Below the pieces are notes generated by a model, which was not told the DNA's origin, made no database searches, and saw only the letters and a program-made list of their open reading frames with translations. A stretch of 64,000 bases of DNA from contig CAZWKA010000005.1 of NCBI GenBank assembly GCA_964634875.1, forward strand, positions 27,167 to 91,166, written 5' to 3'. The translations under genes were made by a program, and so were the position numbers. Position 1 is the stretch's first letter. The number at the start of each line of letters is the position of its first letter. Source of the DNA: an uncultured Gammaproteobacteria bacterium (GTDB lineage Bacteria > Patescibacteriota > Patescibacteriia > Magasanikbacterales > GWA2-37-8). Positions 1,059 to 63,291 of this stretch are shown in pieces.

Positions 1059-2168
1059 ATGTCCAAAGATTATTACAAAATTCTCGGTATCGACAAAAAC
1101 GCTTCGACCGATGAAGTAAAGAAAGCGTTCAAAAAAGCCGCGATGCAGCATCACCCGGATAAACCGACCGGGAACGAGGCAAAGTTCAAGGAAGCCAATG
1201 AGGCCTATCAGATTTTGTCCGACAAAGAAAAGCGTGCCCGTTATGATCAGTTTGGTTCTGACTTTGAACAGCAGGGTGGTTTTGGTGGTGGCATGAGTTG
1301 GGAAGATTTGATGCGCGCTTCACGCGGCCAAGGTGGCCAGGGCGGCGGATTTGAATTTAATTTTGGCGGACAAGATTTTGGGGATATTTTTGGCGACCTG
1401 TTTGGTATGGGTGGTGGACGGAGTCGTGGCAGTGCTCGTCAGTCACGTGGCCGCGATATTCAGGTTGATGTCGAACTCGATTTCAAAGAAGCGGCGTTTG
1501 GCGTGGAGCGTGATGTGCGTTTGCGCAAGCAAGATACGTGTGACGTCTGTAAAGGAAATGGTGCTGAGCCGGGCACTAGCATGGAAAAGTGTGAAACATG
1601 TAAGGGTCAGGGGCAGGTGGTGCAAAACCAGCGCACGTTCTTGGGGAATATGCAGACAGTGGCGACTTGTCCGACGTGCCAAGGGCGCGGCGAACATTCG
1701 ACAAAGAAATGCAAGCATTGCGGTGGAGACGGTGTGCTGTCGAAGGAGTCGACAATTAAAGTAAAAATTCCAGCAGGTATTGATGAGGGGCAGTCGATTC
1801 GTATTACGGGTAAAGGCGAAGCCGCCCCGCATGGTGGCACGAGCGGTGACCTCTATGTGTTGACCCATGTTAAACCAAGCAAAGAATTCCATCGTGAGGA
1901 TTTTGATGTATATGTAGATAAAGAAATTTCGTATCCGCAAGCAGTGCTCGGCGACACGATCGAGGTGCCGACGCTTGAAGGAAGTGTAAAGATTTTGGTG
2001 CCCGAAGGAACCGAGTCTGGTCAGTTGATCCGTTTAAAAGGCAAGGGGATTACGCATCTTGGTAGCACGACTCGCGGAGACGAGTTTGTGCGGGTCAAAA
2101 TTCGGGTTCCAAAGAAAGTCAGTAAAACGGCTAAAAAGCTTCTGGAAGAACTCAAAACCGAAGTTTAA
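1059..2168 (+). CDS. dnaJ: molecular chaperone DnaJ
   Basis: N-terminal J-domain (DYYKILGI...HHPDK), a Gly/Phe-rich linker, and four CxxCxGxG zinc-finger repeats ([32 protein letters not shown]). Confidence 0.95.
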
Positions 2169-2197
2169 AATTGGCTATAATTAGCCAAAATAGTGCG

Positions 2198-2228
2198 AAA
2201 AGGCCTTGACAAAAGGCCTTTTTTGTGC
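2198..2228 (+). terminator. rho-independent terminator of dnaJ
   Basis: Stem AAAAGGCC / GGCCTTTT with loop ttgacaaaa, followed by a T-run. Confidence 0.6.
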
Positions 2229-2234
2229 TATACT
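2206..2234 (+). promoter_or_regulatory. consensus sigma-70-type promoter (TTGACA, 17 bp, TATACT) embedded in the dnaJ terminator and facing the GC-rich island
   Basis: TTGACA at 2206-2211, a 17-nt spacer, then TATACT at 2229-2234. The same -10 hexamer recurs upstream of several genes in this window. Confidence 0.5.
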
Positions 2235-2285
2235 ATTTTGTTCGTCAAACAGACGAATTTTTTGTTTATAAAGCTCTTTAATAAT

Positions 2286-2329
2286 TTCTTACGGTGGAAA
2301 CAGGGTATCCCTTGTTTCCACCGTAAGAA
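2286..2329. repeat. perfect 17-bp inverted repeat hairpin at the left edge of the GC-rich island
   Basis: ttcttacggtggaaaca ... tgtttccaccgtaagaa, with an inner GGG/CCC pairing. Lies 30 nt upstream of the GGAGGG RBS and the ATG at 2359. No T-run follows. Confidence 0.65.
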
Positions 2330-2358
2330 CCAAACCGTTCACTGGAGGGAATTTCGTC

Positions 2359-2910
2359 ATGAAGACTGAGTCTGTCCTCGAGAGTGCCCGCAACCTCGGC
2401 CACATCACGATCACGCTCGGCTTCGCCGCGTTCATCGCTGCGATGGTCGCGAGCGGGTGCGGCACAGAGCCGGTCGGACAGGGCGACGTCGAGGTCGCGA
2501 CCCCCGCGCCCGCGCCGGATCCGCGCTTCACAGCGCCGGGCAACCCCGATTCTCCGCCTTGCTTGGGCTGCGGTTACGCAGCCACGGCTGGCGAGAGCAA
2601 GTCTGTCGCGCCGCCTGCGTCCGTCACCGTTCCCAGCGGCTTCACGCTTCCGCTCGACCTCTCCGGCACGCCCCTCAAGGCCTACCCGGCCTACTCGGCG
2701 CTCTGCCGGGGTGGGGATGTGTCTATCCTCTCGGACTGCCGCAGCCAGGAGCGCGTCTGCACCGCTCCCGAGAACTCCAACGTGGCGGTCGGCTCGATCG
2801 ATCGTCTGTGGTGTTCCGACGGAACGCAGGTCCTCATCCTCATCTGCCCCCTGGACACGAGCGGGGACACGTTCACGGTTGGTACTGAGACCTTCGCTGG
2901 CTGCCGCTAG
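2359..2910 (+). CDS. GC-rich secreted lipoprotein (island gene 1), 183 aa
   Basis: RBS GGAGGG; signal peptide with lipobox (MVASGC); Cys-rich C-terminal half. G/C at most third codon positions, contrasting with flanking genes. The overlapping same-strand ORFs at 2384..2959 and 2457..2888 are GC artefacts. Confidence 0.6.
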   Translation: MKTESVLESARNLGHITITLGFAAFIAAMVASGCGTEPVGQGDVEVATPAPAPDPRFTAPGNPDSPPCLGCGYAATAGESKSVAPPASVTVPSGFTLPLDLSGTPLKAYPAYSALCRGGDVSILSDCRSQERVCTAPENSNVAVGSIDRLWCSDGTQVLILICPLDTSGDTFTVGTETFAGCR

Positions 2911-2946
2911 CCAGCCCCCCCCGAGTCTTCGGACACGGGAGCCCTA

Positions 2947-2971
2947 CGACCCGGATTAAAAACCCGGGTCG
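2947..2971 (+). terminator. GC hairpin after island gene 1
   Basis: cgacccgg attaaaaa ccgggtcg, immediately followed by the conserved AT-rich element. Confidence 0.4.
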
Positions 2972-2974
2972 CTC

Positions 2975-3010
2975 AAATAAATTTCTAAATTTTGTTTGGA
3001 AATTTTGAGA
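2975..3010. repeat. conserved AT-rich inter-gene element, copy 1 (AAATAAATTTCTAAATTTTGTTTGGAAATTTTGAGA)
   Basis: Near-identical to 4380..4414. Internal dyad AAATTTC / GAAATTT. Confidence 0.65.
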
Positions 3011-3119
3011 GTAAGTTCTTTACAACTTAAGGCTACTTACACTCCTGTGGTTAGAACAATGCTTAATGAGTCTTGTTTCAACCACGGGAGCAATCCCATT
3101 TCCTAGGGGGAAGAACACC

Positions 3120-4307
3120 ATGAATCAGACTTTTGCCTCTGCTTTCGCCATCGCCACCACTGTCCTCTTCGGCGCATGCGGCTCGTTGCCGCGGTGGGAG
3201 GATACAATCAAGGCGCCGGCCTTCCAGGCTGTGCGTGAGATCGTGGTCGCGAACGTCCAGCTGGACAGCGCCATTACTGGTACGGCCAACGGCCGTGTCG
3301 TGGTGGCCAAAGAGAAACTGTTCGACAAGACAGTGCTCCTCGGTGCACTCGAGAGCTATGACGTCGTGAGCGGCAGCAAAATCGCTGAGCGCATCCCGAC
3401 TGGTGACTGGCGCGAGACCTGGCACAGCGGCGCGCTCGTCGCTGGTGCGAAGGGTGAGGCTCTTATCGGCCTCGGCGGCGAGTTCCGGCAGATCAACAGC
3501 GATCTCGCGGACACGCAGCGCTTCGATCAGGCCTACACCTATGTGAATCCGGTCTGGACGCCCAGCGGCTGGCTCATCGGCGGGGCGGACAAGTTCGACG
3601 GTGGCGACTCGGTGAAGTACTACTTCAACGATCCGACTGGCGATTCGCCCCCGAGCTTCGCCTTCGACGGCTGTGGCTGGGTGCGGGGCATCGCGAAGCT
3701 GGGTCACACCACCTTCGCAGTTGTCTCGCGGCGCGATGGTAACGCCAAGAACTGGTTCGAGCTGCTCACCTTCACGAAGGGCGCACAGCACGTCTATCGG
3801 GCGCTCAAGACGGACACGGGACGAGTCGGAGGCTACTGCGGCGGTCTCCAGGGTCTGGAGCTTCTCGCTATCGAAGCGGATCGTGCTCGTGAAGAGGTTA
3901 TCGTCGTGTGGTCGTTCGATAAGGACGAGAACTACGAACTCCACGTTACGGCGTTCTCTGAGGACGGCCGGTTGCTGCGGGATCAGAAGCTTCTTTCCCG
4001 CTACGAGCGCGTGTATGCGGCCAAGATCTTCCGTGGGGGAGTCGCTGTCGTCGGGCTGAGCAAGCTCGGCGCTGGTGGCTTCACGCTCAAGCTGATCTCG
4101 ACCGACAGCACCATCAAGGAAGGCGAGGCAATCCCAAATAAGGATGTTGACTCGGTGAGTTCCTTCCGGATCGCCCAGGCTGACCCGAGTCACCTGGTGG
4201 TCGCCTACACCTCGCCGAGTCGGACGGCTGCCCAGGTTCGCTCCACGGTTCTCAAGGTCTACGACCTTGGACCGGGCCCGGGAGACGAGCCGCTCCACCT
4301 CGAGTAG
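3120..4307 (+). CDS. GC-rich secreted lipoprotein (island gene 2), ~395 aa
   Basis: RBS AGGGGG then ATG at 3120 (MNQTFASAFAIATTVLFGACGS; lipobox LFGAC). The track ORF starts further upstream at 3066. The antisense ORF 3078..4298 is a typical high-GC artefact. Confidence 0.6.
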   Translation: MNQTFASAFAIATTVLFGACGSLPRWEDTIKAPAFQAVREIVVANVQLDSAITGTANGRVVVAKEKLFDKTVLLGALESYDVVSGSKIAERIPTGDWRETWHSGALVAGAKGEALIGLGGEFRQINSDLADTQRFDQAYTYVNPVWTPSGWLIGGADKFDGGDSVKYYFNDPTGDSPPSFAFDGCGWVRGIAKLGHTTFAVVSRRDGNAKNWFELLTFTKGAQHVYRALKTDTGRVGGYCGGLQGLELLAIEADRAREEVIVVWSFDKDENYELHVTAFSEDGRLLRDQKLLSRYERVYAAKIFRGGVAVVGLSKLGAGGFTLKLISTDSTIKEGEAIPNKDVDSVSSFRIAQADPSHLVVAYTSPSRTAAQVRSTVLKVYDLGPGPGDEPLHLE

Positions 4308-4350
4308 CCTTCCCCCTCATCTCTTCCGCGCTTCGGCGCGCTCGAGACCA

Positions 4351-4375
4351 ACGCCCGCGATTCACTCGCGGGCGT
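4351..4375 (+). terminator. GC hairpin after island gene 2
   Basis: acgcccgcg attcact cgcgggcgt, followed by copy 2 of the AT-rich element. Confidence 0.4.
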
Positions 4376-4379
4376 CTTC

Positions 4380-4414
4380 AATTAAATTTCTAAATTTTAT
4401 TGGAAATTTTGAGA
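4380..4414. repeat. conserved AT-rich inter-gene element, copy 2 (AATTAAATTTCTAAATTTTATTGGAAATTTTGAGA)
   Basis: Roughly 31 of 35 positions match copy 1, with the same position relative to the preceding GC hairpin. Confidence 0.65.
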
Positions 4415-4428
4415 AGCATTATAACGCT

Positions 4429-4455
4429 AACACCTTTACAAAAGGTGTTTTTTGT
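4429..4455 (+). terminator. rho-independent terminator
   Basis: aacaccttt aca aaaggtgtt followed by TTTTTT. Confidence 0.5.
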
Positions 4456-4513
4456 TATCTACTACTTTAGTCTTTAAGTCTCTGCAACGCCCACTTGTCG
4501 GAGGAAATGCAAC

Positions 4514-5701
4514 ATGCATGTTTTTCGAATCATTGGTTGGTTACTGCCCGCGTGTCTTTCTGCGTGTGGCGAACCGGGTATGACCCCAGGTGCTGCTGAC
4601 CTGCCTCCCTCGGGCGATGAGCGTGGGTGTCAGTCCTTTGGTAATGAGGTTGTTGTCCGGGATGTGCCCCTCGGCGAGACGTATCGTATCGCTGCCTTGG
4701 CGAACAGCTACCTGGTCGCCTGGCACACGAATACCCGCGATGTTCCGAGGGAAGTTAACTTCCACCTGTTTGGTCTTGGCGGAGAGGCTGTCACCACGAA
4801 CCCAGTCACGATCCCGCATGGTGAGGTTGATCTCAATTTCGTGATCGCCGGCAAGGACGGGCGTTACTACGTCCAGACGGTCGAGTCGGTGGCCGGCCGG
4901 CCGTTGTATTGGCTGCATGCGTTATCGCCCGAAGACACTACCTCCATCGTTTCGGCACCGCTCACTGAGAACATGAATGTCTCGGGGATGGCTGTTAGTC
5001 CCTGGGGCCTCCTGGCTGTTTCTGGTAGTTCGACGGCGGAAGAGAGTAGCTACGCCGTTTCGACGGTGGATGAAAAAGCTACCCTGACTCATTTCGCTGA
5101 GATCCGTGAGGCGGGCACGACGTGTCCGGTCGTATCTGCGGTTGCCGCGAGCCATAATCAGCTTGCGATCGCTGCGGTGCGTGAAACGACGAGGGGTACG
5201 AGGAAGCTGAGCGTCATCATCCGTTCGGCAGACGGTTCGGTGAACGATGTTCTTATCGAGGAGCACCAGCGGGTAGCGCTCGAAGAGGCGTTCTACTGCG
5301 CGTCGTACGCTGTTTACATCAAGAAGCTCTTCGCCCTGCCCGACGGTTCGTTTGGTGTGTGGTGGTGGGACTATCGCGTCGCTGGCTACTACCTGACCGT
5401 TGTGTCGAACACTGGCGTTGCTGGTCCGGCGCGTCGAATCAAGCCGGTTCAGTTCCCGGGCATCTCTGATTTGGCTTGGGTGGAAGGTGATTTCGTTGCC
5501 AGCGTCTACCAGTACAACGGTCGGCCCGATGAAGTCGGTATTCTGCGTCTGCAGCTTGACCTGGAGGTTGAGACGAGCGACTACCTGAAGCTGGGCATCG
5601 ATAGTTGGGAGGCACCAAAGATCGCTTCCACAGGGCGACACTTGGCCGTCGTGCGCAATTCGCTTGAGTCACCCGCGGTCTACTTTCTCGCCTGCCGTTA
5701 G
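4514..5701 (+). CDS. GC-rich secreted lipoprotein (island gene 3), 395 aa
   Basis: RBS GGAGG; signal peptide with lipobox (LSACG); GC-rich codons; the antisense ORFs here are artefacts. Confidence 0.6.
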   Translation: MHVFRIIGWLLPACLSACGEPGMTPGAADLPPSGDERGCQSFGNEVVVRDVPLGETYRIAALANSYLVAWHTNTRDVPREVNFHLFGLGGEAVTTNPVTIPHGEVDLNFVIAGKDGRYYVQTVESVAGRPLYWLHALSPEDTTSIVSAPLTENMNVSGMAVSPWGLLAVSGSSTAEESSYAVSTVDEKATLTHFAEIREAGTTCPVVSAVAASHNQLAIAAVRETTRGTRKLSVIIRSADGSVNDVLIEEHQRVALEEAFYCASYAVYIKKLFALPDGSFGVWWWDYRVAGYYLTVVSNTGVAGPARRIKPVQFPGISDLAWVEGDFVASVYQYNGRPDEVGILRLQLDLEVETSDYLKLGIDSWEAPKIASTGRHLAVVRNSLESPAVYFLACR

Positions 5702-5769
5702 GCGATTTTGGCAATTTAGTGCCATCCCCAATCTATATTGGGCATGCGTGCGGACATGTTGCCCTCCGC

Positions 5770-5810
5770 TTTTCTCTTGAGCGCTTACGTATTAAGCTCT
5801 CAAGAGAAAA
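5770..5810 (+). promoter_or_regulatory. long hairpin between island gene 3 and the ECF sigma promoter
   Basis: ttttctcttga gcgcttacgtattaagc tcaagagaaaa forms an 11-bp perfect outer stem plus inner pairing. It may terminate the island transcript or act as an operator for the sigma gene. Confidence 0.4.
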
Positions 5811-5850
5811 ATTGTTTACCCTGATATTTTTTGGTAAACTACAGATTGTT

Positions 5851-6363
5851 ATGGCTTTTACTAAAAATGATTTTGAAAAGTTTTATAACGATCACTTTGA
5901 TAAAGTGTATCGTTTTATTTTCTTTCGGATTGGCAGCAACAAAGATGTGGCCGAGGATTTGGTATCCGAGATTTTTATGAAAGCGCTCAAAGCGTTCGAA
6001 ACGTATGACCCGAAGGTCAGCCAGTCAGCATGGATCATGACGATCGCAAAACATCATCTCCTTAATTACTGGAGGGATCGTAAAAATGCGGTGCCACTGC
6101 CCGGAAGCGAGATGTCCCAAGAAAATGGTGTGTTGGATAGTTTTTGGCTTAAAAGCGCTCTGTTACAGTTTGGTGTCCAAAAGGAGAAATGGCACGTAAC
6201 CGAACTTTTATTAAAATTAGAAACAAACGAGCGGGAAATTGTAACTTTTCACTACCTTTTGGGGTATAGTTATTTAGAGATTGCTGAACTGCGGGGTCAA
6301 AGCGAAGGGGCGGTAAAAGTTGCAGCCCACCGAGCGATTAAAAAAATGCGTGATTGGTTATGA
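5851..6363 (+). CDS. ECF-type RNA polymerase sigma factor
   Basis: Sigma-70 region 2 (YDPKVSQSAWIMTIAKHHLLNYWRDRKN) and region 4 HTH (EREIVTFHYLLGYSYLEIAELRGQSEGAVKVAAHRAIKKM). The ATG at 5851 follows a TTGTTT...TAAACT promoter. The track ORF start at 5719 is a GTG extension. Confidence 0.8.
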   Translation: MAFTKNDFEKFYNDHFDKVYRFIFFRIGSNKDVAEDLVSEIFMKALKAFETYDPKVSQSAWIMTIAKHHLLNYWRDRKNAVPLPGSEMSQENGVLDSFWLKSALLQFGVQKEKWHVTELLLKLETNEREIVTFHYLLGYSYLEIAELRGQSEGAVKVAAHRAIKKMRDWL

Positions 6364-7109
6364 AATTTTTACTAAAATACAATTTAAGAAAAATGGGTAA
6401 AGCCCTGAAGGCCGAGCCTGCTTTTAAGCAAATGCTGTGGGCGGTGCTCGAAAAATCTTTGGATACTTCCCGTGCGCCGAGAGTTTTGTGGTACCAAGGA
6501 TATGTTTTTCGGGTGGCAACTGCTTTTGTGCTTGCTGCTGTAGTTGTTGGTGCAACAGGCGCCTATGCTTATGCGAGTCCCACAGTTACCGAGGGTACTG
6601 TTTTGTACCCAGTAAAAAAGACACTGGAGAAAGTGGGGGAGAAATTACAGGTCACGCCCGAGAAGAAAGCGGTCTTTTTGTTAAAACAGATCGATCGCCG
6701 CGAGGCTGAGAAAAAAGTTCTGGAGACGAAGCATCAGCCCATCCAAAACATTGAGACAGCGATTGGGAGTACTGAACAAAAGCTCGAGACAGCGAGCGCG
6801 GCACTTAAGGCGACGCCAAAGAAAAATCCGGCTTTACTTAAAAAAGTTGAGAAACGTTTGACGGAGCGCCAAGAACGGCTTGAAAAAGCCAAACGTGAAT
6901 TGGAAAAACGCCTAGAAAAACGGGAAGAACGTGATGAGGATGATAGTGAGGGGAAGGAAGAAAAGAAAAGGGAAGAGAGTGGTGTTATAGAGCAGCTCGG
7001 TGAGAAATTGTTACAAGATAAACCTGTGGAGTCACGCGAGCAGAAAAAAGACTTGGAAGACGTGGTGCAGGAGAGTGTTGAGGAAAGGCTTATGGATCGG
7101 CTCAGATGA
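6360..7109 (+). CDS. putative membrane-spanning anti-sigma factor
   Basis: Its ATG overlaps the sigma TGA (ATGA). Short cytoplasmic N-terminus, one TM helix (VATAFVLAAVVVGATGAYAYA), and a charged coiled-coil ectodomain. Confidence 0.5.
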   Translation: MKFLLKYNLRKMGKALKAEPAFKQMLWAVLEKSLDTSRAPRVLWYQGYVFRVATAFVLAAVVVGATGAYAYASPTVTEGTVLYPVKKTLEKVGEKLQVTPEKKAVFLLKQIDRREAEKKVLETKHQPIQNIETAIGSTEQKLETASAALKATPKKNPALLKKVEKRLTERQERLEKAKRELEKRLEKREERDEDDSEGKEEKKREESGVIEQLGEKLLQDKPVESREQKKDLEDVVQESVEERLMDRLR

Positions 7110-46992: not shown

Positions 46993-47021
46993 TTGTTAAT
47001 TTTGGCTAATAGCTGTATACT
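46993..47021 (+). promoter_or_regulatory. promoter TTGTTA, 17 bp, TATACT
   Basis: Ends 10 nt upstream of the ATG at 47032. Its -35 is the TTG alternative start of the over-extended track ORF. Confidence 0.45.
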
Positions 47022-47031
47022 AGGGGTAAAT

Positions 47032-49254
47032 ATGGATAGTATCGACCAAACAGAAAACGAAAAGCTGGCTGCCTCAATTGATCCGACAATCAATTTTTTT
47101 GGCATGACTAATTACCGGAACCAGAACCGGCGTTTTGGTATTAAGATTGATGACCGGCGCCGTCATATGTATTTGGTGGGGAAGACAGGTATGGGTAAAA
47201 CCACCATTCTTGAGAACATGGTTATTAACGATATTTATTCCGGCCACGGTATTGGGCTGGTAGATCCGCATGGCGACTTTGCCGAAAAGGTGCTTAACTT
47301 TGTTCCCGCTAACCGTATTAACGATATTGTCTATTTCAATCCTTCGGATATTGATTATCCGATTGGGTTTAATATTTTGGAATCAATTAACCCCGATTAC
47401 AAACACTTAGTGACCTCGGGTCTGATGGGTGTCTTTAAAAAGATTTGGCCAGACGTCTGGAGTGCCCGTATGGAATATATTTTGAATAATACGATTTTGG
47501 CGCTGTTAGATTTTCCAGGTACGACACTCTTGGGTATTAACCGTCTACTTGCTGATAACGAGTACCGCAAGCGAGTGGTTGCCAACCTAAAAGATCCGGT
47601 GGTCAAAGCTTTTTGGCAAACTGAGTTTGCGGGATACAGCGATAAATATAAGCAAGAAGCCGTTGCGCCTATCCAAAACAAGATTGGTCAATTTTTGTCA
47701 GCATCAATTATCCGCAACATTGTGGCTCAGGTCAAATCGCGTATCGATATCCGCGAGATTATGGACAGCAAGAAAATTTTTATTATGAACTTGTCCAAAG
47801 GGCGCATTGGTGAAGATAACTCGCGCCTCCTGGGCGGTATGCTTATTACCAAGATCCAGCTTTCGGCCATGGAGCGTGTCGATATAATTGAAAAAGACCG
47901 TAAAGATTTCTTTTTGTATGTTGACGAGTTCCAAAACTTTGCCACGGAAAGTTTTGCGAATATTTTGTCCGAAGCCCGTAAGTACCGCCTTGATTTGATT
48001 ATGGCACACCAGTACATGGAACAGCTTGATGAAAAGGTGTTGGCGGCGGTTATTGGTAACGTTGGTACTATGGTTACCTTCCGAGTAGGATCGAGTGATG
48101 CCGAAATTTTGGCTAAAGAATTTATTCCAACATTTGTGGAAGAAGATTTAGTTAACTTGCCCAAGTACCATGTTTATTTAAAACTCATGATTGACGGTGT
48201 TGCGTCGCGACCATTTAGCGCAATGACCTTGCCGCCTATTGGCAGTCCAACCGGAAGCTTGGAGAAAGTAATACGCGTTTCGCGTGAACGCTATGCAGTT
48301 AATCGCAATACCATTGAAGATAAGATTGCAAAATGGAGTGGTATGCTTATAAATGCCGAAGACGTTGAGGCAGAAATGGCGCTTGGTCCCGATGTAGTTA
48401 CTTTTAAAGAAGATTTACCTCCGAAGCCAGCGGTTGTGCCTCCACCTCTGGCTAATGTCTCAACTCCACTTCCTGTCGTACCGCCCGCTCCGGCTAGTGT
48501 CCCAAAACCGGCTGAAAACCGTACTCCAGCTGCCCCAGCATCGCCGGTTCCGCCGAGTTTGGTAAGTGCTCAGCAGCAACGTGCCGTGTATGTTAATCGG
48601 ACTACTCCTTTGCCAGCATCTTCGCCTGCTGTAAGGTCGCCGCAATTACAGCCAATGCGTGAGCCGCAGCGGGATACTTTTCAGCGTCCGCCGCAGCTTC
48701 GTGATCAATCTGCCGCTGGTTTAGGCTCTGCAATGGGTGCAGATGGCGAGCGAAGAAAAAAGCGGCGGCGCAAAAAGAAAGGTTCTGGTTCGGGCTCCTT
48801 GCCCTCACAAGGGGAACAAGTGCTCTTGGTTGATCCGGCACAACAGGGGATATCGCTTAGCGCCATGCTTCCTAAAAACGCGCCGCAGAATGACCGGTCG
48901 CGAGACATTCGTCCGCCTCGGCAGCCGCAGGCACCACAACAGCCAACGAGCATGCCCGAACAACGCCAGGGTGAGCGCCGCGAGCAGTCGGGTGCACCTG
49001 AGCCAATTAATTTGGGTAGCCCGGTACAGCCTCGTGAACAACCGCCAGTACAACCACCTGCGCCTGCTGCACCCCGTCCAGCGCCAGTTGCACCACCGAC
49101 ATCAGCTGTTCCGACGGCTCCGCCACCACCTGCTCCAATGGCACCGCCACCGCAGCCTCGGCCCGAACCGCCACCAACACCGCCAGCTCTTCGTCCCGAA
49201 CAGCAACCAACCCAATTACAGCCGGGGCAAGTCGTAAAGCTTGATATACATTAA
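47032..49254 (+). CDS. orphan VirD4/TraD/TrwB-like (FtsK-HerA superfamily) P-loop ATPase with a ~300-aa Pro/Gln/Ala-rich disordered C-terminal tail
   Basis: Walker A LVGKTGMGKTT and Walker B FFLYVDEFQNF, ~430-aa core. The tail (from ~aa 450) is low-complexity PPAPA-type with an RKKRRRKKK cluster. Confidence 0.65.
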   Translation: MDSIDQTENEKLAASIDPTINFFGMTNYRNQNRRFGIKIDDRRRHMYLVGKTGMGKTTILENMVINDIYSGHGIGLVDPHGDFAEKVLNFVPANRINDIVYFNPSDIDYPIGFNILESINPDYKHLVTSGLMGVFKKIWPDVWSARMEYILNNTILALLDFPGTTLLGINRLLADNEYRKRVVANLKDPVVKAFWQTEFAGYSDKYKQEAVAPIQNKIGQFLSASIIRNIVAQVKSRIDIREIMDSKKIFIMNLSKGRIGEDNSRLLGGMLITKIQLSAMERVDIIEKDRKDFFLYVDEFQNFATESFANILSEARKYRLDLIMAHQYMEQLDEKVLAAVIGNVGTMVTFRVGSSDAEILAKEFIPTFVEEDLVNLPKYHVYLKLMIDGVASRPFSAMTLPPIGSPTGSLEKVIRVSRERYAVNRNTIEDKIAKWSGMLINAEDVEAEMALGPDVVTFKEDLPPKPAVVPPPLANVSTPLPVVPPAPASVPKPAENRTPAAPASPVPPSLVSAQQQRAVYVNRTTPLPASSPAVRSPQLQPMREPQRDTFQRPPQLRDQSAAGLGSAMGADGERRKKRRRKKKGSGSGSLPSQGEQVLLVDPAQQGISLSAMLPKNAPQNDRSRDIRPPRQPQAPQQPTSMPEQRQGERREQSGAPEPINLGSPVQPREQPPVQPPAPAAPRPAPVAPPTSAVPTAPPPPAPMAPPPQPRPEPPPTPPALRPEQQPTQLQPGQVVKLDIH

Positions 49255-62005: not shown

Positions 62006-63112
62006 CTAGGCTGGGGGTCCGAGCTCAGCCGTCTCCACGCGCGAGCTGAGGAACGCGCCCAGGTGTCGCCGGAGCGTTGTGATACCCGGCTTGATCAGCT
62101 CGGCATAGTCAACGAGGGCGCTGCCGATCATCGCATACTCCTTGGTCATTCCCGAGAGCTGATAGGTGGAACGCCCAAGCTTGAGCGGGTACTCGATCTG
62201 CTTCTTGTTGGTCGAGTGCCGAGCGACGTTCGGCTTGAAGCCTAGGTTGTTTCTCAAAAAGCCGAGCCCGCGGCTCGGGCGCTGCGAGATGTCATGCTCG
62301 TTGTACAGCGAGAGCTTGGCCGAGGTGAGCTCGCCATCTTTCAGAACCGTCTCAATGGCGTAGCGCTCTGTATAGACGATCTCCGGCAGAAGCGAAGGGT
62401 TGTTCATGAGCTCGTGGAACTCGGGCGGCAGAACAGCACGAACGCAATTCTCATAGAGATCGAGGTCCAGCAGCTCAGGACCGTCGAGCGGCTCTTCACC
62501 CCGCCAGATCGGCCGACCGAGCGGGATGCCGGTCAGGCGCTTGATCGTCTTCAGGATCGACTTGCGCTCCTCGTCGAGCAGGTGGCTCACGTTCGCCGTG
62601 AAGAAGGTGCGACCACGCTCTACCCTTCGCTTGAGCGCACCCCACTGCTGGATGATCCAGAGCGCGCCGTGGTCCGGCGAGATCGGGCGACCGTCATCGA
62701 AGGTCCAGCTGCAGGTTACGTAGTTTTCGGACTTTCTCTGCTTTAGGCTGAACCCGACGCGAAAACTCTTCGGGCCGATACCTACCTGATTCATGCCGCT
62801 GTAGCTCAGTTCCACCGGACCGTAGGTGACCGTGTCGCGCTGCCCCGAGAACGCGGAGTTTCCGACCCCCTCTCGGATAGTGTAAGGAGCGAGGTGATCA
62901 CCCGGCCGATACTCAAGGAGCCAGCTGGTCGGCAGGAGTGCGCTCGAAGGCTCCACCCACACGTGATCGCCCATGTTGTGGATCATCAGGTGCCGAGAGC
63001 CTGTCTCGTGGTGGTCCTCCGGCCGCAGCTGCCACTCACCCCGTATACGTAGGAGCGGCGTTGGGCTCGGGAACCGGACCTGGTTTGCGAAAAAATAGTT
63101 CTGACCATTCAT
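62006..63112 (-). CDS. GC-rich orphan hypothetical protein, ~368 aa
   Basis: Visibly GC-rich ORF with GC at third codon positions in an AT-richer genome. RBS GAGGAAAAG upstream of the ATG at 63112. The track ORF extends to 63211. The plus-strand ORFs inside it are artefacts. Confidence 0.55.
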   Translation of the reverse strand: MNGQNYFFANQVRFPSPTPLLRIRGEWQLRPEDHHETGSRHLMIHNMGDHVWVEPSSALLPTSWLLEYRPGDHLAPYTIREGVGNSAFSGQRDTVTYGPVELSYSGMNQVGIGPKSFRVGFSLKQRKSENYVTCSWTFDDGRPISPDHGALWIIQQWGALKRRVERGRTFFTANVSHLLDEERKSILKTIKRLTGIPLGRPIWRGEEPLDGPELLDLDLYENCVRAVLPPEFHELMNNPSLLPEIVYTERYAIETVLKDGELTSAKLSLYNEHDISQRPSRGLGFLRNNLGFKPNVARHSTNKKQIEYPLKLGRSTYQLSGMTKEYAMIGSALVDYAELIKPGITTLRRHLGAFLSSRVETAELGPPA

Positions 63113-63291
63113 GAACTTTTCCTCTGCTCTCCCTTTCCATTCAAGGCTCCGGTCAGGGCACTGCCTGACATGCGGAGGAGTCTTGGTAACTCTCAGGAGT
63201 AGCTCGCGCATAACAAATTTATTGTGCTCGAGCTCATCCGGAAAACTCTTAAGAGTATACTTTTTAGATCATTTTGTCAATATACTGGGGT

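Follow-up and report, generated by a model that had tools for sequence, protein, structure and literature searches.

The window, a 64-kb stretch of DNA, carries a gene island between dnaJ and a pair of genes for an ECF sigma factor and an anti-sigma factor. Its features, together with two further GC-rich segments of the window, are as follows.

1059–2168, + strand: dnaJ, the conserved left border of the island
2198–2234, + strand: T', the dnaJ terminator hairpin (AAAAGGCC/GGCCTTTT) followed by a T run
2240–2327, + strand: slot-1 leader, with a 5'-end hairpin and U run at 2240–2264 (a terminator-like site) and a long leader hairpin at 2288–2327
2359–2910, + strand: g1, a 183-aa Cys-rich lipoprotein, GC3 0.83
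2920–2939, + strand: H1, a GC hairpin with a TTCG loop, just past the g1 stop codon
2947–2971, + strand: H2, the GC-rich hairpin of the type-1 junction
2971–3012, + strand: E1, copy 1 of the element, a two-helix stem-loop (previously noted core 2975–3010; outer helix 2971–2974/3009–3012, inner helix 2979–2990/2994–3005, loop 2991–2993)
3012–3043, + strand: T*, a decayed copy of the T module, with a weak hairpin (TAAGTT/AACTTA) and TTTACA in its loop
3042–3090, + strand: g2 leader hairpin, weakly similar to the g1 leader hairpin
3120–4307, + strand: g2, a 395-aa lipoprotein, GC3 0.77
4327–4375, + strand: H1' (4327–4340, TTCG loop) and H2' (4351–4375), the GC hairpins of the type-2 junction
4376–4416, + strand: E2, copy 2 of the element (previously noted core 4380–4414; outer helix 4376–4379/4413–4416, inner helix 4384–4393/4400–4409, loop 4394–4399)
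4429–4463, + strand: T, an intrinsic terminator (hairpin 4429–4449 and T run), called as a terminator-like site
4514–5701, + strand: g3, a 395-aa lipoprotein, GC3 0.65
5851–7109, + strand: ECF sigma factor (5851–6363) and DUF5667 anti-sigma factor (approximately 6363–7109), assigned by Pfam and synteny, the conserved right border
48.4–49.3 kb: GC-rich segment without the element, the Pro-rich tail of a TraD-like ATPase
62.0–63.2 kb: GC-rich segment without the element, a gene on the - strand

The gene content of the island varied between lineages. No similarity was detectable among the g1, g2 and g3 proteins. Homologues of g1 were found only in lineages A and C (62–74% amino-acid identity), g3 had a close homologue in lineage D alone (43–44% identity) and a distant relative (P0127) in an unrelated locus context, and a search of 5.8 billion proteins returned no homologue of g2. 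The GC-rich genes flanking the element fall into six or more unrelated families, most of them of lipoproteins, and differ from one lineage to another. The g1 gene of one relative (L012) is a mosaic, indicating that the island recombines, and in a more distant relative (L009), which has no island, the dnaJ and sigma genes overlap. All known examples of the island come from a single small clade of Patescibacteria near Candidatus Magasanikbacteria. Pfam searches covering every window ORF of 120 aa or more (54 in total) revealed no integrase, transposase, HUH nuclease or reverse transcriptase. A diversity-generating retroelement, considered because of the GC hairpins that follow the stop codons, was rejected, as neither a reverse transcriptase nor a template/variable repeat pair was present.

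The intergenic scaffold has a fixed order of GC hairpin H2, element, variable spacer and terminator/promoter module T, and the element holds the same position behind g1, behind gY, behind g2 or behind a membrane-protein gene of lineage F. T' and T are canonical promoter-overlapping intrinsic terminators with a hairpin and a U run, whereas the element has neither a GC-rich stem nor a conserved U tract and so does not qualify as a terminator itself. The loop of T' holds a −35 hexamer, TTGACA, with TATACT 17 nt downstream (11/12 matches in the promoter scan, with an extended TG), and T' is the probable promoter of g1 and g2; in lineages C and D the stem has covaried to GACC/GGTC around an unchanged loop. 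The loop of T holds TTTACA, with TCTACT 17 nt downstream, and T serves as terminator of the g1–g2 unit and probably as promoter of g3. Lineages A, B, C and D all keep T, as does F, where changes in the stem are compensatory. At T* there is no U run, TACACT lies only 13 nt away, and the scan called neither a promoter-like nor a terminator-like site; likewise, the promoter scan and inspection detected no sigma-70-like promoter for g2 inside or just past copy 1.

The leaders and hairpins of the scaffold were also compared across lineages. The slot-1 leader is orthologous in A, C and D although gY replaces g1 in D, and its homology stops approximately 28–33 nt ahead of the ATG. The leader hairpins of g2 and g1 aligned with a local score of 28 (null 18.7±3.6; 27 of 1000 shuffles reached 28). 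Different hairpins fill the H1 position behind g1 (lineages A and C) and behind gY (lineage D), H2 differs at 0–4 of 29 nt among lineages W (the window), A, B, C and D, and H1' and H2' are nearly identical in lineage F, where they lie behind an unrelated gene. The free covariation of H1, H2 and T suggests that the region behaves as structured RNA. An AT hairpin close to dnaJ (2171–2188) was considered as a relative of the element and set aside, since its architecture was analogous and its sequence homology unconvincing.

E1 and E2 were identical in 33 of 36 aligned columns, differing by two substitutions and a 1-nt deletion in the loop. The sequence-only reading had described two near-identical 35-bp copies at these positions, each containing an AAATTTC/GAAATTT internal dyad and preceded by a GC-rich hairpin after the stop of a GC-rich ORF, and all of this was recovered, the hairpins being H2 and H2'. 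Its suggestion that the copies may mark the borders of compositionally atypical genes was correct; the flanking genes have a GC3 of 0.65–0.83. Each half of the element occurred exactly twice in the 64-kb window, and dinucleotide-preserving shuffles gave no full-length match. With filters off, a covariance-model scan across the entire window returned the two copies alone, at 100 and 76 bits, the next-best match (20.7 bits) being an ordinary terminator. Weak homology of approximately 50–60% reached into the flanks of E1 and E2 on both sides, indicating that the repeated unit exceeds 35 bp. The same reading had allowed that these might be the sole copies, produced by a simple segmental duplication that included the flanks; the aligned junctions are not a simple recent segmental duplication, and the element is also present in relatives.

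Exact-pattern scans covered genome, metagenome and viral collections, and further lineages were obtained by protein-guided retrieval. The scans yielded one additional true copy, at the equivalent locus of a related genome, the species representative of lineage A, which the exact pattern matched once; two of the three matches in the genome collection were rejected as spurious. Protein-guided retrieval added four more lineages with the element, for a total of six, and in 6/6 it lies between dnaJ and the ECF sigma/anti-sigma pair, with 1–2 copies per genome and always at one locus. No copies outside the island were seen in the other retrieved loci. The exact pattern gave only chance matches inside coding sequence, or nothing, in the metagenome and viral collections, BLAST of the intergenic region against phage and plasmid collections returned nothing, and Rfam 15 gave no gathering-level match in the window and chance-level matches alone in 2100–5900. 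A small mobile repeat dispersed in the manner of REP, MITE or uptake sequences, one of the earlier suggestions, would account for a short palindromic repeat and nothing more; as both copies in 64 kb sit at one locus, with one exact match in the lineage A genome, no true metagenome or viral matches and an empty phage and plasmid BLAST, it is refuted for the sequence covered.

The element data set comprised seven copies from six lineages (two from W, and one each from A, B, C, D and F). The inner 5' arm was identical in 7/7 copies and the 3' arm differed by at most one base. Among W, A and D, 50–53% of the fourfold-degenerate sites of dnaJ were different, and the 15–19-nt spacer directly downstream of the element had diverged beyond recognition; invariant arms next to such saturated sites indicate purifying selection. 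Within the same module H2 and H2' differed at 13–14 of 29 positions, with compensatory stem changes, yet the element arms were identical. In these alignments no other non-coding piece of the island scaffold is as strongly constrained as the element. A neutral relic, whose similarity would stem from a recent duplication or transfer of a junction module without function, would be consistent with the weak homology in both flanks and with recombination of the island between lineages. Conservation in six lineages where neutral sites differ by approximately 50%, and identical arms beside the diverged hairpins and saturated spacer, make this explanation very unlikely.

In the element, a small asymmetric internal loop separates an outer helix of 4–5 bp from an AU/GU inner helix of 10–12 bp, which is capped by an apical loop that varies. 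Across the copies, fold energies ranged from −8.8 to −17.1 kcal/mol (z −2.0 to −4.7) on the + strand and from −1.7 to −6.6 kcal/mol (z +0.8 to −2.4) on the - strand, so that good folding was confined to the + strand. In the alignment 95% of cells were paired, compared with 26–60% when partners were slid by 1–3 columns. Each stem substitution was compatible with pairing on the + strand only: the inner helix shows a single U-A/U.G toggle, with G in B, D and F, and the outer helix a compensatory change from C-G to U-A and a change from C-G to U.G. Departures from a perfect palindrome always placed T opposite G, in one orientation. The arm-to-arm distance was 10, 12, 13 or 15 nt while the arms were unchanged, which argues for a hairpin rather than a duplex site. 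In this sample of seven copies, pairing on the predicted transcribed strand was kept through substitutions, as in an mRNA stem-loop.

Two points about this pairing pattern weigh against an RNA signal. The covariation of the inner helix consists of a single wobble toggle, and the two-sided changes come from one split between type-1 and type-2 copies. The same pairing signature would be expected from a hairpin in single-stranded + strand DNA.

The + strand-specific hairpin with wobble-compatible substitutions is the strongest signal and points to RNA, a reading absent from the sequence-only reading. We tentatively favour, with a probability of roughly 45%, a sequence-specific RNA stem-loop in a 3' UTR or between cistrons, with possible roles in processing, stability or terminator read-through. 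The transcript of the upstream gene would carry the element in its 3' UTR, and copy 1 would probably be intercistronic within a g1–g2 transcript: with no sigma-70-like promoter for g2 and no U tract at T*, transcripts that start at the dnaJ-proximal promoter should extend across copy 1. The element would act in cis on the RNA and be recognised by sequence plus shape, and its likely roles would be endonucleolytic processing that stabilises the 3' end, or a control on how far transcripts read through terminator T. As a secondary consequence, the two direct copies would form repeats between which the g2 slot was gained or lost. Antiterminator pairing of the element with T was considered and dropped, because the spacer is not conserved and inspection revealed no complementarity.

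Arms as strictly conserved in sequence as these two are typical of protein-binding sites, and in 5/7 copies the AT-rich dyad lies 19–23 bp upstream of the −35 hexamer of module T. Both features would suit a double-stranded DNA operator, in which the AAATTTC/GAAATTT dyad is bound by a dimeric transcription factor, possibly linked to the ECF system, that regulates the promoter downstream. However, the variable half-site spacing shifts the helical phase, the distance to the −35 hexamer is either 8 or 19–23 nt, and T-opposite-G departures are meaningless in duplex DNA. There is no ECF-type −35/−10 pair and no conserved −10, and the sigma-70-type promoter of the sigma gene itself lacks the element (TTGCAC-17-TATACT in A; TTGTTT-17-TAAACT in W). 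The operator for the ECF sigma system that had been suggested earlier is on these grounds highly doubtful. Promoters that depend on an ECF sigma factor have −35 and −10 elements at a fixed distance and usually recur ahead of the sigma gene. An ECF sigma-dependent promoter was also rejected, since nothing is conserved 16–18 nt downstream of GGAAAT across the copies and the sigma-gene promoters are of sigma-70 type and free of the element.

The element might instead be part of a compound terminator, its AU-rich hairpin pausing RNA polymerase, or terminating where a U run follows, and thus reinforcing T. The hairpin always lies just upstream of T or its relic, a U7 run follows it directly or after 1 nt in A and C, and a U6 run follows after 4 nt in B. 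In W copy 1, W copy 2, D and F, however, no U run follows; the stem is built of A-U and G.U pairs, the scan leaves the element uncalled yet calls the neighbouring T, and g2 appears to depend on read-through of copy 1. We give this explanation only a small probability.

Recombination at the element deserves separate consideration. The g2 unit of 1404 bp (3011–4414) is bounded by two direct copies. Lineages A, B, C and D have a single copy, whose left flank is orthologous to that of copy 1 and whose right flank is orthologous to that of copy 2. In lineage F a type-2 junction adjoins T, which suggests that a slot was lost in A–D through recombination between repeated junction modules, and the mosaic g1 of L012 shows that recombination does take place in the island. 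The element could thus be a crossover site for slot insertion or deletion, either site-specific (integron-, Xer- or HUH-like, acting on a single-stranded + hairpin) or driven by homology between direct repeats. Recombinases acting on single-stranded DNA also use strand-specific hairpins with wobble pairs.

Several results speak against a dedicated crossover site. The 54 window ORFs encode no recognisable recombinase of the types searched, and the attC core motifs RYYYAAC (R'') and GTTRRRY (R') were absent from both strands of 2905–3125 and 4300–4520. A tyrosine-recombinase core site could not accommodate the variable central spacing. The element is fixed in the scaffold and is not carried along with the genes, and the single copy in A–D is of type 1 from end to end, GAGAG tail included, so that no crossover is visible inside it. 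Deletion between 35-bp repeats, moreover, requires no dedicated site. The recombination site for cassette insertion that the sequence-only reading had listed has weak support, from the g2 indel between direct copies, and we regard a crossover site as unlikely. Two specific candidates were rejected: a Xer/dif-like or other tyrosine-recombinase core site, which needs a fixed centre of 6–8 bp, and an integron attC site, because the inner helix is invariant in sequence and the same junction lies behind unrelated genes (g1 or gY; g2 or the membrane-protein gene of F). Against the RNA stem-loop, it also counts that an indel of g2 with a copy at either end is explained equally well by recombination.

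The island nevertheless resembles integron arrays in its co-oriented, unrelated and partly promoterless genes (g2), in the hairpin repeats between them, in apparent expression from an upstream promoter and in gene content that varies between relatives. Unlike integron arrays, it has no IntI in the 64-kb window and no RYYYAAC/GTTRRRY core sites. A CALIN is a cluster of attC sites without an integrase, but it has several attC sites. The element conserves sequence, whereas attC sites conserve structure only, and the repeat belongs to the locus rather than to cassettes, with none behind the last gene of the array.

In the minimal mobile elements of Neisseria, a single syntenic site flanked by conserved genes is occupied by alternative genes, as summarised in PMC1797815, citing Saunders and Snyder 2002. 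The island is similar in holding alternative, unrelated gene sets between conserved neighbours (dnaJ and the sigma gene), in carrying surface-protein genes, and in the mosaic g1, which points to exchange by homologous recombination. It differs from the Neisseria elements in that conserved non-coding modules inside the variable region split it into slots, and in that the inserted genes have a foreign GC3 (0.65–0.83). A combined explanation, in which the island is an integrase-free gene-capture platform with fixed expression slots next to the ECF sigma/anti-sigma genes, foreign GC-rich genes for surface lipoproteins are swapped in and out, and H2–element–T acts both as expression or processing signal and as specific recombination site, is improbable. 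If true, it would be a platform of a kind not described before, in Patescibacteria.

For the RNA stem-loop that we favour, the closest parallels are processing and stabilisation signals. SRPS elements in E. coli are intercistronic or 3'-UTR stem-loops for selective RNA processing and stabilisation (PMC10667835), and the plastid intercistronic expression element is another example (PMC2230500). Like these, the element is a sense-strand hairpin located between cistrons or at a gene end, beside GC-rich hairpins of a protective kind, and has a two-helix shape with an internal loop, approximately 17 bp in total. It differs from them in that its helix sequence is invariant, it occurs in 1–2 copies per genome at one locus, and a role in cleavage or stabilisation is here predicted from sequence. 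Two helices and an internal loop also characterise the RNase III sites of phage T7.

Patescibacteria (the Candidate Phyla Radiation) are uncultured and mostly attached to other cells, and with such a lifestyle their surface lipoproteins probably mediate contact with hosts or phages. Conserved non-coding slots through which six or more unrelated gene families of foreign codon bias rotate point to a cell surface that is remodelled rapidly. The element offers a short, testable handle, as an RNA motif or a recombination junction, on the expression or exchange of the island genes, and could serve as a marker to find further such islands; were it merely a lineage-specific stabilising hairpin, its interest would be local. 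One point against the RNA stem-loop lies in the helix itself: RNA signals that are purely structural seldom have an AU-rich helix of invariant sequence, and such a helix would need a sequence-specific partner.

The element is a 35-base AT-rich palindromic repeat present in two near-identical copies (copy 1, 2975-3010; copy 2, 4380-4414), as the sequence-only reading had described. The copies were identical at 33 of 36 aligned columns, the differences being two substitutions and one central single-base deletion. With two mismatches allowed, the element halves, AAATTTCTAAATTTT and TTGGAAATTTTGAGA, each occurred exactly twice in the window, and window shuffles yielded no full-length match to the element. 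A covariance model built from all known copies and run over the window with filters off recovered only copies 1 and 2 (100 and 76 bits); the third-ranked match (20.7 bits) was an ordinary bidirectional terminator. The copies lie in an island of three GC-rich lipoprotein genes (g1, g2 and g3), within host DNA of ~45% GC whose genes have a GC3 of 0.36-0.49.

Features of the island and its neighbours in the window
1059-2168, dnaJ, left neighbour of the three-gene island
3' of dnaJ, T', sister module of T, TTGACA-17-TATACT, 11/12 matches
2359-2910, + strand, g1, GC3 0.83
3120-4307, + strand, g2, GC3 0.77
4429-4449, T, canonical hairpin and U-run terminator, TTTACA in the loop and TCTACT 17 nt downstream
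4514-5701, + strand, g3, GC3 0.65
5851-7109, ECF sigma/anti-sigma pair (Pfam), right neighbour of g1-g2-g3

As read from the sequence, all three genes have a Shine-Dalgarno sequence and a signal peptide with a terminal lipobox cysteine, and their proteins are mutually unrelated. Both g1 and g2 are followed, in this order, by a GC hairpin whose loop is TTCG (H1 or H1'), a second GC hairpin (H2 or H2') and the element, which folds into two helices, an outer one and an AU/GU inner one of 10-12 bp, separated by a small internal loop. Copy 2 is followed by a variable spacer and module T, and copy 1 by T*, a decayed relic of T that lacks the U run and has a gap of only 13 nt between TTTACA and TACACT. 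Neither sequence reading nor a promoter scan of the window found a sigma-70-like promoter for g2. From these features we infer that g1 and g2 would be co-transcribed through copy 1, with the transcript ending at T.

We then searched for the element beyond the window. An exact-pattern scan of 185,579 species-representative genomes returned one true relative, a 416-kb contig (L001) with a single copy at the same locus; the metagenome collection gave chance coding matches only and the viral collection nothing, all these counts being lower bounds because variants such as GGAGATTTT escape the pattern. Phage and plasmid BLAST searches and an Rfam search gave no matches. In the sequence covered by these searches the element occupies a single locus, which excludes the dispersed, small mobile repeat suggested earlier. 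Homologues of the sigma factor place the source organism in the Patescibacteria, near Candidatus Magasanikbacteria, and protein-guided retrieval brought the total to seven copies in six lineages. The element is an undescribed, lineage-restricted structured motif.

Gene order in the element-carrying lineages (E, element)
W (window): dnaJ-g1-E-g2-E-T-g3-sigma
A (L001/L013/L014), B (L008) and C (L012), B and C partial: dnaJ-g1'-E-T-gX-sigma
D (L019-L023): dnaJ-gY-E-T-g3'-sigma
F (L024): GC-rich membrane-protein gene, E-T, 391-aa lipoprotein gene, sigma

The element was absent from two more distant relatives: L009, where dnaJ and the sigma gene overlap, and L011, where one ordinary gene lies between them. 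gX and gY are relatives at 38-40%, members of a family that follows the junction in A and B and precedes it in D. Homology across lineages ends ~30 nt 5' of the start codon and restarts at H2, and the slot-1 leader hairpin and the H2-element-T junction keep their position whichever gene adjoins them, which assigns the element, on sequence comparison, to a fixed scaffold and not to the genes. The slots (gene positions of the island) hold at least six unrelated gene families; g2 had no homologue among 5.8 billion proteins, and homologues of g1 and g3 were confined to element-carrying lineages. A fixed scaffold with interchangeable GC-rich genes is a more unusual feature than the element itself. 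Among known systems, this architecture most resembles the minimal mobile elements of Neisseria (PMC1797815), and its likeness to integron arrays is superficial.

Two junction types were distinguished. In type 1, which comprises copy 1 and the copies of A, B, C and D, the shared H2 varies at 0-4 of 29 nt; in type 2, which comprises copy 2 and the F copy, the shared H2' and H1' are nearly identical. Between the types, 13-14 of the 29 positions of H2 and H2' are different and the stem carries compensatory changes, a divergence that points to an old duplication of the junction module. The inner arms of the element are unchanged across it: the inner 5' arm (10 nt) is identical in 7/7 copies, and the sole variation in the 3' arm is one position that toggles between A and G, with G present in B, D and F. 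Neither the sequence nor the length of the apical region is constant, the spacer 5' of T is saturated, and W, A and D differ from one another at 50-53% of the fourfold-degenerate sites of dnaJ. These comparisons show purifying selection on the arms and rule out similarity merely from recent copying.

Only the + strand of the element folds well (-8.8 to -17.1 kcal/mol, z -2.0 to -4.7; - strand, -1.7 to -6.6 kcal/mol). On the + strand, all positions that depart from Watson-Crick pairing are U.G pairs, and either base of the A/G toggle can pair with U. Two changes are seen in the outer helix, one from C-G to U-A, which is compensatory, and one from C-G to U.G. In total, 95% of cells were paired, compared to 26-60% after sliding partners by 1-3 columns, and only 2-5 of 500 shuffles reached the observed percentage paired, two-sided changes or covariation score. 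These statistics give support, short of proof, because the sample is small and the two-sided changes come from one split. The arm-to-arm distance was 10 nt in F, 12 nt in copy 2 of W, 13 nt in copy 1 of W and in A, B and C, and 15 nt in D, a range that suits a hairpin loop and does not suit a recombinase core or the site of a dimeric DNA-binding protein.

The proposed operator for the ECF sigma system was not supported, and both a phased operator and an ECF promoter were rejected: there is no conserved -10, the distance to the -35 of T is variable, and each sigma gene is served by a sigma-70-type promoter of its own that lacks the element. A terminator was also rejected, the stem being AU-rich and followed by a U run only in A, B and C.

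We put at roughly 45% the probability that the element acts at the RNA level, control of read-through at T included. It would form a stem-loop of the sense transcript, read by a partner for its sequence as well as its shape; the two GC hairpins 5' of it could protect the upstream cistron, and the element would then precede the terminator. Alternatively, within the same RNA reading, it may set read-through at T. T7 RNase III sites are known processing hairpins that resemble the element. With two helices and an internal loop (~17 bp in total), it is like the processing hairpins of polycistronic mRNAs and selective RNA processing and stabilisation elements (PMC10667835; PMC2230500).

The suggestion of a recombination site for cassettes held only in a loose sense. 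The g2 unit (1404 bp) is bounded by two direct copies of the element, and its outer flanks are orthologous to those of the single copy in A-D. The type-2 junction adjoining T in F makes it probable that recombination between repeated junction modules removed a slot in A-D; W, A and D are roughly equidistant, so F alone gives this direction. At a minimum, then, the element appears to have been a passive substrate for recombination. A dedicated system of site-specific recombination acting at it is unlikely: a scan of 54 window ORFs turned up no integrase or other recombinase, no transposase and no reverse transcriptase, and the element fails as an attC or dif site. An attC site was rejected, as the element lacks the core motifs, conserves sequence instead of structure, and does not travel with the gene.

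The lineage C g1 allele (L012 686-1243) is a mosaic, its first 240 nt being 92.5% identical to W and the rest 98% to A, although for lineage C dnaJ the identity is 93% with A and 80% with W; this points to exchange between lineages by recombination within the island. The 5' arm of H2 is a breakpoint in three independent assemblies (start of L007, at window 2951; end of L015; start of L008), and a JGI contig (L016) begins exactly at the sigma gene; these breaks could reflect strain heterogeneity at the junction or coverage loss in GC-rich hairpins.

Terminator hairpins with a -35 hexamer in the loop lie at window 2198-2234 and 4429-4463, L020 2888-2925 and L024 697-735. The loop hexamer is TTGACA or TTTACA and is followed, at exactly 17 nt, by TATACT or TCTACT; the stems covary between lineages (GGCC, GACC, CACC, CCC) and the loop is fixed, suggesting combined terminator-promoter modules. 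The g1 leader (2240-2327) opens, directly 3' of the promoter, with a terminator-like hairpin, which covaries in D, and a U run; next comes a long leader hairpin, to which the g2 leader hairpin (3042-3090) is weakly similar; these leader hairpins may be attenuators or 5' stabilisers. A perfect AT-rich hairpin (2171-2188, TTGGCTATAATTAGCCAA) lies directly 3' of the dnaJ stop codon and 5' of T', and its lineage C counterpart (TTGGCTTATATAAGCCAA) shows covariation. It occupies a position comparable to the element's and differs from it in sequence.

GC-rich island genes (window 2359-5701; L001 2005-3501; L020 1983-4160; L024 1-1988) have a GC3 of 0.65-0.83, compared to 0.36-0.49 for the genome, and lack homologues outside the clade. 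A DUF5666 gene lies 3' of the anti-sigma gene in the distant relatives (L009 11134-11814; L011 11470-12393) and is absent from W, A, B and D, the GC-rich-island lineages with that region sequenced. A second GC-rich island on the - strand (window 62006-63211; 60% GC, GC3 0.77), with no element nearby, encodes a 401-aa protein with no Pfam match or signal peptide. The GC-rich stretch at 48.4-49.3 kb stems from the ~300-aa proline/glutamine-rich C-terminal tail of a TraD/VirD4-like coupling ATPase (window 46993-49254).
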